Origin: a virus
Lineage: Duplodnaviria; Heunggongvirae; Uroviricota; Caudoviricetes
Virus record (IMG/VR): IMGVR_UViG_2563366951_000001
Coordinates: 1-34,825 of that record
DNA length: 34,825 nucleotides
Direction: 5' to 3' (one strand)
Below are positions 4,496 to 4,699 of the stretch, piece by piece (position 1 is the first letter of the stretch; every line of letters begins with the position of its first letter). Under the pieces are notes generated by a model. It saw nothing but the letters and a program-made list of their open reading frames with translations. It was not told the origin of the DNA and did not search any database. The position numbers and the translations under genes are program-made.

Positions 4496-4699
4496 TTAAC
4501 CTCCAGATTTCCGCGCATCTAAAGGCGCATTCTCATTTGGTGTGAACTGAATAGTTGTGCTGATATTGATTAATGCCCCGACACACAAGACTACGCACTC
4601 AGAGCAGATAGCAACTTCATCTTTTCCGCCTTTGGCGATGATTTTTTTTGCCTGCAGCTCGTTTGCTCCACAAAACGAGCATGTGAAATAACGGTTCAT
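4496..4699 (-). CDS. small protein with ClpX-type C4 zinc-ribbon
   Basis: CSFCGANELQAKKIIAKGGKDEVAICSECVVLC closely parallels the ClpX N-terminal zinc-binding domain (CSFCGK...ICDECVDLC, from memory); start taken at second ATG (MNRYF...) which has an AGAGAG-type SD. Confidence 0.6.
   Translation of the reverse strand: MNRYFTCSFCGANELQAKKIIAKGGKDEVAICSECVVLCVGALINISTTIQFTPNENAPLDARKSGG

Follow-up and report, generated by a model that had tools for sequence, protein, structure and literature searches.

A stand-alone ClpX-type zinc-binding domain (ZBD) is encoded in an SfV/e14-like lambdoid prophage of E. coli integrated beside icd, and its gene is predicted to open a leftward early unit controlled by the repressor. 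The window (the whole stretch of DNA analyzed, 34.8 kb) carries this gene 184 bp downstream of a cI-type repressor gene, on the same strand. The leftward order is repressor, ZBD gene, 91-aa gene, convergent 81-aa gene, xis, and int, and the rightward genes comprise cro, a CII/YmfL-like gene, DUF4222, and an HTH replication protein. As NCBI/PGAP already names the product "ClpX C4-type zinc finger protein," the domain assignment is already public, and what is added here is the regulatory context of the gene. The genes next to the ZBD gene are as follows.

4049–4294, plus strand: 81-aa gene (phrog_3311), convergent with the 91-aa gene and overlapping its 3' end by 83 nt (4212–4294)
4212–4487, minus strand: 91-aa gene (phrog_3195), homolog of SfV orf33
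4496–4699, minus strand: ZBD gene, encoding a 67-aa stand-alone ClpX-type ZBD protein (RefSeq WP_001083098.1)
4642–4649, minus strand: A8 homopolymer within the ZBD coding sequence, codons A17-K18-K19-I20
4884–5510, minus strand: cI-type repressor of 208 aa with HTH_3 and Peptidase_S24 domains and predicted cleavage at VQA/G (87/88)
5608–5808, plus strand: cro, P22_Cro family

The enclosing ORF (4496–4717, minus strand) encodes 73 aa counted from its first ATG. The ATG at 4699 is the start kept in all homologs (M-N/S/T-x-Y/L-x-TCSFCG); it is preceded by AAGAGAG, and the RefSeq CDS has the same coordinates as this shorter form. The resulting protein begins with MNRYFTCSFCG and holds four zinc ligands in two C-x2-C knuckles (C7-x2-C10 and C32-x2-C35), which are conserved among homologs with the sole exception of P0008. 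The enterobacterial signature reads Y-[YF]-TCSFCG in its first part and AK-[KR]-I-[IV]-AKGG-[KR]-DE-x-AICS-[ED]-C-[VI]-V-x-CV-x-x-[LM]-IN in its second. The ZBD core covers approximately residues 4–45, and the tail (46–67) varies in length and sequence among homologs. In comparisons with diverged homologs, synonymous sites were saturated (pS 0.64–0.93) while pN was 0.14–0.23, indicating that this is a real gene under purifying selection; dN/dS was about 0.10–0.16 where calculable. In P0008, a 79-aa protein from an E. coli plasmid, unrelated residues (MNRYFTCPLLVAKTSRRQKIHVKGG...) stand in place of the first knuckle, and this scrambled N-terminal stretch may have arisen by compensating frameshifts around the A-tract.

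The initial annotation had described the product as a free-standing ClpX-type zinc ribbon, and profile and structure comparisons bore out both parts of this description. Pfam zf-C4_ClpX (PF06689) matched the protein with an E-value of 1.4e-10 and 41.3 bits (gathering cut-off, 27 bits), spanning profile positions 2–34 of 39 and residues 12–46 of the 73-aa long form. The only other Pfam match was a sub-threshold one to Elf1 (E 0.069), and a phmmer search against PDB sequences returned ClpX chains only, with 2ds5/1ovx as the best (E about 3e-4). No Pfam, NCBIfam, or PHROG match at E ≤ 0.1 was obtained to DksA/TraR, Ogr/Delta, Mu Com, or other zinc-ribbon regulators, so the ClpX-type assignment stands against the unrelated families (e.g. 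DksA/TraR) named in that annotation. The AAA+ module of ClpX is absent: the protein has 67 aa in all, and the NCBIfam ClpX equivalogs scored 25.8 and 22.7 bits against cut-offs of 359 and 371, over model positions 6–48 only. The protein also matched phrog_5259 (E 4e-32) and phrog_20296 (E 5e-26); as both families lack an assigned function, they give no clue to mechanism.

An AlphaFold model built from six sequences had a mean pLDDT of 62 (68–78 in the core, below 50 in the tail) and consisted of hairpins and a helix at residues 33–48, with the tail modeled as disordered. In a Foldseek search against the PDB, the only matches at E < 0.1 were a ClpX integrative model (9a5x) and the ZBD crystal structures 2ds5, 2ds6, and 2ds8; all remaining matches had E > 1. 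The crystal structures superposed with an rmsd of 1.5–1.7 Å over 40–45 columns (target TM 0.77–0.82, prob 1.00). The phage protein thus shares with the ClpX ZBD its Pfam family, the C-x2-C ... C-x2-C ligands, the CSFCG and IC-x-EC-V-x-LC motifs, and this close superposition, while its identity to the E. coli ClpX ZBD is about 36%. The differences lie on the surface and in the length. The second hairpin is 3 residues longer in the phage domain (AKGG[KR]DE-x-A; KGGKDE here), Ala occupies the position of ClpX Tyr34, and the helix is hydrophobic (CVxxLIN) where the ClpX counterpart is acidic; ClpX continues into its AAA+ module, whereas the phage protein ends at residue 67. Given the insertion, the Tyr34-to-Ala change, and the hydrophobic helix, the same ligand specificity as that of ClpX should not be assumed.

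Between the repressor gene and the ZBD gene, and in the cI-cro intergenic region, the following elements were identified.

4723–4787, minus strand: leader of about 65 nt, lying between the pL-like site and the start codon, kept whichever gene follows
4802–4830, minus strand: pL-like site resembling a sigma-70 promoter, TTGCCA-17-TAGATT, by consensus match only (9 of 12 positions)
4805–4818, no strand: operator-like palindrome CTAACTTAACTTAG (CTAA-N6-TTAG), in the spacer and -10 of the pL-like site
4834–4865, minus strand: terminator-like hairpin of 13 bp, directly after the cI stop codon and running into a U-rich stretch
4841–4854, no strand: second operator-like site CAAACTTTTCTTAG, with one mismatch, upstream of the -35; weak on its own
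5533–5595, no strand: OR region, with operators CTAAGTAATCTTAG (5533–5546) and CTAATAAAACTTAG (5582–5595)
5553–5581, plus strand: pR-like site TTGACC-17-TAGCAT, between the two OR operators

The pL-like promoter and the operators are inferences from consensus matches and repeats in the sequence. The palindrome CTAA-N6-TTAG occurs in three exact copies in the 34.8 kb, against 0.17 expected; the two copies outside the pL-like site both lie in the cI-cro intergenic region, where they flank the pR-like site. The hairpin after cI has a predicted energy of -15.1 kcal/mol (z -2.35), and canonical terminators are found at the same place in relatives, SfV being annotated with a putative one. The order of hairpin, operator-overlapped promoter-like site, leader, and gene suggests that the ZBD gene heads a leftward unit under repressor control, which is the position of lambda N, the first leftward early gene. 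Expression in the lysogen is therefore not expected, and the gene should give the first leftward product after derepression or infection. This expectation weakens the superinfection scenario raised in the initial annotation, as expression would not occur in the lysogen. The same annotation had placed the gene next to the repressor, which holds for its position, but co-expression with the repressor does not follow, given the elements that lie between them.

Related prophages show a comparable arrangement. In the Nissle 1917 prophage, strain SZQ1, and one metagenomic locus, a canonical terminator follows each repressor gene, and the palindromes after the terminator recur in the cI-cro spacer of the same prophage. 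When the two spacers were compared across ten immunity types (10 × 10), cognate pairs shared a mean of 3.8 exact 9-mers versus about 0.2 for non-cognate pairs, and operator-like words common to the cI-ZBD and cI-cro spacers were found in at least five further immunity types. The exact 9-mer test gave no signal in four of the ten types (diagonal 0–1), and for the window's own type it returned one shared 9-mer only. Operators built of spaced half-sites escape a 9-mer test, so the operator assignment for this type rests on the spaced half-site match.

We also considered a rexAB-type moron, co-transcribed with cI from pRM in the lysogen, and rejected it, since the predicted hairpin, operator-overlapped promoter-like site, and leader intervene. 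Separately, the space between the repressor gene and the ZBD promoter is an insertion hot spot in relatives, matching the position of lambda rexAB. Its cargo is an opposite-strand gene of 306–322 aa, a ParA-like 358-aa gene, two small genes, or an IS1 copy (loci L022, L024, and L087, 1908–2873; L038, 1739–2730; L051 and L030, ~800–2780).

The ZBD gene behaves as an accessory cassette. In SfV, the same 64-nt leader (window 4725–4788) is joined straight to orf33, with no ZBD gene, and vB_EcoM-689R6 is 99% identical over window positions 4724–5700 and then carries an unrelated 68-aa gene in place of the ZBD gene. A near-identical ZBD allele is present in about 98 of 5426 complete E. coli genomes. 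The A-tract varies in length among the fetched loci (A8 in 43, A7 in 6, and A9 in 1), and A7 and A9 alleles are frameshifted while otherwise more than 98% identical, as seen in an alignment of three E. coli alleles (loci L017 and L018). Alleles of 228 or 230 nt are un-annotated, and roughly a third of the sampled E. coli carriers lack an annotation. This length variation could be real slippage with pseudogenization, or a long-read assembly error. Close relatives without the gene and the frameshifted alleles together indicate that the ZBD gene is dispensable.

An identical 44-aa ZBD core was found behind five repressor types whose mutual identity is only 23–42% and which include both cleavage-site classes, WVQA/G and xSA/G. 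The Nissle-type ZBD allele was found behind seven repressor types. The mosaic joint falls between the operator/promoter and the leader, which places the ZBD gene outside the immunity module. As one allele accompanies five unrelated repressors, its target is unlikely to be immunity-specific and might be, for example, a host protein; a repressor-specific partner is disfavored for the same reason.

Stand-alone ZBD proteins are also found far beyond this prophage. An exhaustive HMMER search of 1.84 billion representatives yielded 537 clusters at E ≤ 1e-3, and among the best 150 of these nearly all were proteins of 50–300 aa with 1–4 ZBD copies; few had a ClpX-like length (e.g. a 416-aa protein at about 1e-5). 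Phage members fall into four PHROG families, and two more distant single-ZBD members sit in phage-like early operons. A scan of a species-representative genome collection returned two distant Clostridia loci only. ZBD-only proteins appear to be a large uncharacterized class that extends beyond phages. Many bacterial proteins consist of 2–4 tandem ClpX-type ZBDs without an AAA+ module (P0024, P0025, P0027–P0030, and others), and one 2505-aa protein (P0016) gave 37 partial matches.

Adaptors and some substrates of ClpXP dock on the ClpX ZBD. The regulators whose stability depends on ClpXP include lambda O, which it degrades, MuA, the Mu repressor, LexA fragments, UmuD', sigma-S, and, in S. aureus, the cleaved CI fragment. 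We tentatively propose that the phage protein is a decoy: by capturing peptides that would otherwise dock on the ClpX N-domain, it would protect some ClpXP clients at the beginning of lytic growth; we regard this as possible and short of probable. According to this proposal, an accessory immediate-early protein made of one ClpX-N-type zinc ribbon and a disordered tail would be transcribed from the leftward promoter-like site, with its cognate cI operator, once the repressor is lifted. The free ZBD, probably a dimer like the ClpX ZBD, would then bind short motifs that otherwise dock on the host ClpX N-domain. These might be the tails of adaptors such as SspB, RssB, and UmuD, or alternatively N-domain-dependent substrates such as O-type replication initiators. 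Competition for the docking motifs would transiently spare the corresponding clients from ClpXP during the lytic switch.

The conservation of the ZBD core alone, with variable tails, suggests that the ZBD itself is the functional unit. The initial annotation had offered an adaptor as an alternative to a decoy. The protein has no separate cargo-binding domain or ClpX-tethering element, and its tail is variable and modeled as disordered; with no second conserved domain, an adaptor appears less likely than a decoy. Isolated ClpX ZBD supplied in trans inhibits RssB-mediated sigma-S degradation by ClpXP in vitro (PMC7226468). The competitor in that experiment was the host's own ZBD, whereas the phage ZBD is a diverged relative, and its diverged surface counts against a decoy, as its ligands may differ from those of ClpX. 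The dispensability of the gene also speaks against this model.

Small proteins that interfere with delivery to ClpXP already have host examples in the anti-adaptors IraD, IraM, and IraP, which bind RssB; they have no sequence relation to the phage ZBD protein. A closer parallel in logic would be lambda CIII, a small pL-encoded inhibitor of FtsH (PMC10584840 and established knowledge). Both would be small accessory proteins expected from a repressor-controlled leftward promoter and proposed to modulate a host AAA+ protease, the phage ZBD being directed at ClpXP substrate selection rather than at FtsH. They share no sequence or fold relationship: CIII is a competitive substrate or inhibitor of FtsH, whereas the phage ZBD copies the protease's own recognition domain. 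No functional work on a stand-alone phage ZBD turned up in full-text literature searches.

Phages are known to encode inhibitors of Lon and FtsH; in literature searches we found no description of a phage factor acting on ClpX substrate selection. By making a free ClpX N-domain at derepression, a phage would have a simple way to alter the substrate choice of ClpX. The broader reading, that the first leftward product of these phages is a free ClpX docking domain that reprograms ClpXP targets at derepression, is rather doubtful at present; its scope would be temperate enterobacterial phages and, more distantly, many other phages. If true, this would be the first viral decoy of an AAA+ protease recognition domain and the ClpXP counterpart of lambda CIII. 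As the family is small in size, soluble-looking, and widespread (four PHROG families and 537 clusters), a single biochemical finding would allow many genes to be annotated. Should the protein not act on ClpXP, it would be one more small accessory early protein with no assigned function.

The zinc ribbon might instead be a generic protein- or nucleic-acid-binding module whose target, such as another host factor or a defense system, is unrelated to ClpXP, its likeness to ClpX reflecting shared ancestry only. The diverged surface is consistent with this, as are the wide radiation of the domain outside ClpX (537 clusters, the best 150 nearly all short) and the behavior of the gene as an accessory cassette of variable position. 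To our knowledge, however, the sole characterized activity of the ZBD fold is the docking of ClpXP adaptors and substrates. PADLOC defense models gave no match at E ≤ 1 for the ZBD protein or its 91-aa neighbor, so no defense or anti-defense family is indicated, and no DNA- or RNA-binding zinc-ribbon family was matched either. A ZBD-type domain has also been reported in cyanobacterial sigma factors (PMC11119718), which again favors a target outside ClpXP. We consider such a target somewhat unlikely.

Binding to ClpX itself is less plausible. The phage protein could pair with the ClpX N-domain in mixed dimers, or it could attach to the ClpX hexamer, and thereby block all N-domain functions or serve as a minimal adaptor that delivers its own cargo to ClpX. 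The ClpX ZBD is a dimerization domain, as established by cross-linking (PMC7226468), and the phage protein retains, or reinforces, the hydrophobic positions of the C-terminal helix (V36, L38, A42, and L43 versus V40, L42, I46, and I47 in ClpX). However, mixed dimers would have to outcompete stable ClpX ZBD homodimers, and the protein lacks a second conserved domain or a cargo-tethering motif. Taken together, we judge direct ClpX binding to be unlikely.

The ZBD gene lay just past an S24-type repressor gene in all loci examined, which raised the question of whether its product is directed at the repressor. S. aureus phages phi11 and 80alpha cannot complete induction until ClpX binds the cleaved CI N-terminal fragment (CI-NTD), and this binding is all that completion requires (PMC10584840). 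By mimicking ClpX on CI-NTD, the ZBD protein could bind this fragment, or cI itself, and complete or speed induction; as the product of a repressed promoter it would provide positive feedback. The two systems are alike in that ClpX recognition is tied to S24-type repressors and the ZBD gene adjoins such a repressor. In phi11 and 80alpha, however, the factor is the full-length ClpX of a Gram-positive host, whereas the ZBD allele here is independent of repressor type, and ClpX may recognize CI-NTD either by its ZBD or by its pore. The five repressor types behind one core, the seven behind the Nissle-type allele, and the location of the gene outside the immunity module also speak against a repressor-directed role, and the close relative SfV induces without a ZBD gene. 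This makes such a role quite improbable.

The leader was found also in related loci L002 (3636–3699), L003, L004, L005, and L007. RNAalifold predicted a closing helix and an inner hairpin (CCGGU/ACCGG versus CCUGG/CCAGG), and 4 of 17 pairs showed compensatory changes among five sequences. The leader had no Rfam match, whether the whole window was searched at gathering thresholds or the leader region alone at E ≤ 10, and no second copy of the leader core was found in the 34.8-kb window. HK022 putL is about 70 nt long, forms two stem-loops, and lies just after pL (PMC9378689); the leader resembles it in position and size. We regard the leader as a candidate antitermination or leader RNA. As other genes directly follow it in SfV and vB_EcoM-689R6, it does not need the ZBD protein. 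A small transcription or antitermination regulator at the lambda N position, which the placement of the ZBD gene directly after the pL-like promoter and the conserved structured leader might suggest, is accordingly very improbable, since the same leader precedes other genes, frameshifted alleles are common, and no match to the N, Q, Ogr/Delta, or Com families was obtained.

Downstream of the ZBD gene, the 91-aa gene starts 8 nt past the ZBD stop codon, with a GGAGG ribosome-binding site within the ZBD 3' end. It is predicted to form one transcription unit with the ZBD gene, yet it is not co-inherited with it. Its product had no Pfam, NCBIfam, or PADLOC match, and its AlphaFold model reached a pLDDT of 44. 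The 91-aa protein as an obligatory partner of the ZBD protein was dropped, as SfV carries the 91-aa homolog without a ZBD gene. The families of the 91-aa and 81-aa genes, phrog_3195 and phrog_3311, are conserved PHROG families with no assigned function.

In the rightward early operon, positions 8824–9150 (plus strand) encode a 108-aa protein that consists of the LexA DNA-binding domain only (PF01726, E 2.9e-19), without the S24 cleavage domain; it is also present in related locus L007. Such an uncleavable LexA-NTD look-alike could keep SOS genes repressed in lytic growth. In E. coli, ClpXP degrades LexA-NTD fragments, and a link between this protein and the ZBD protein is conceivable. At the prophage end, past the integrase gene, lies an IS110-family transposase (DEDD_Tnp_IS110 and Transposase_20; 691–1968, minus strand).
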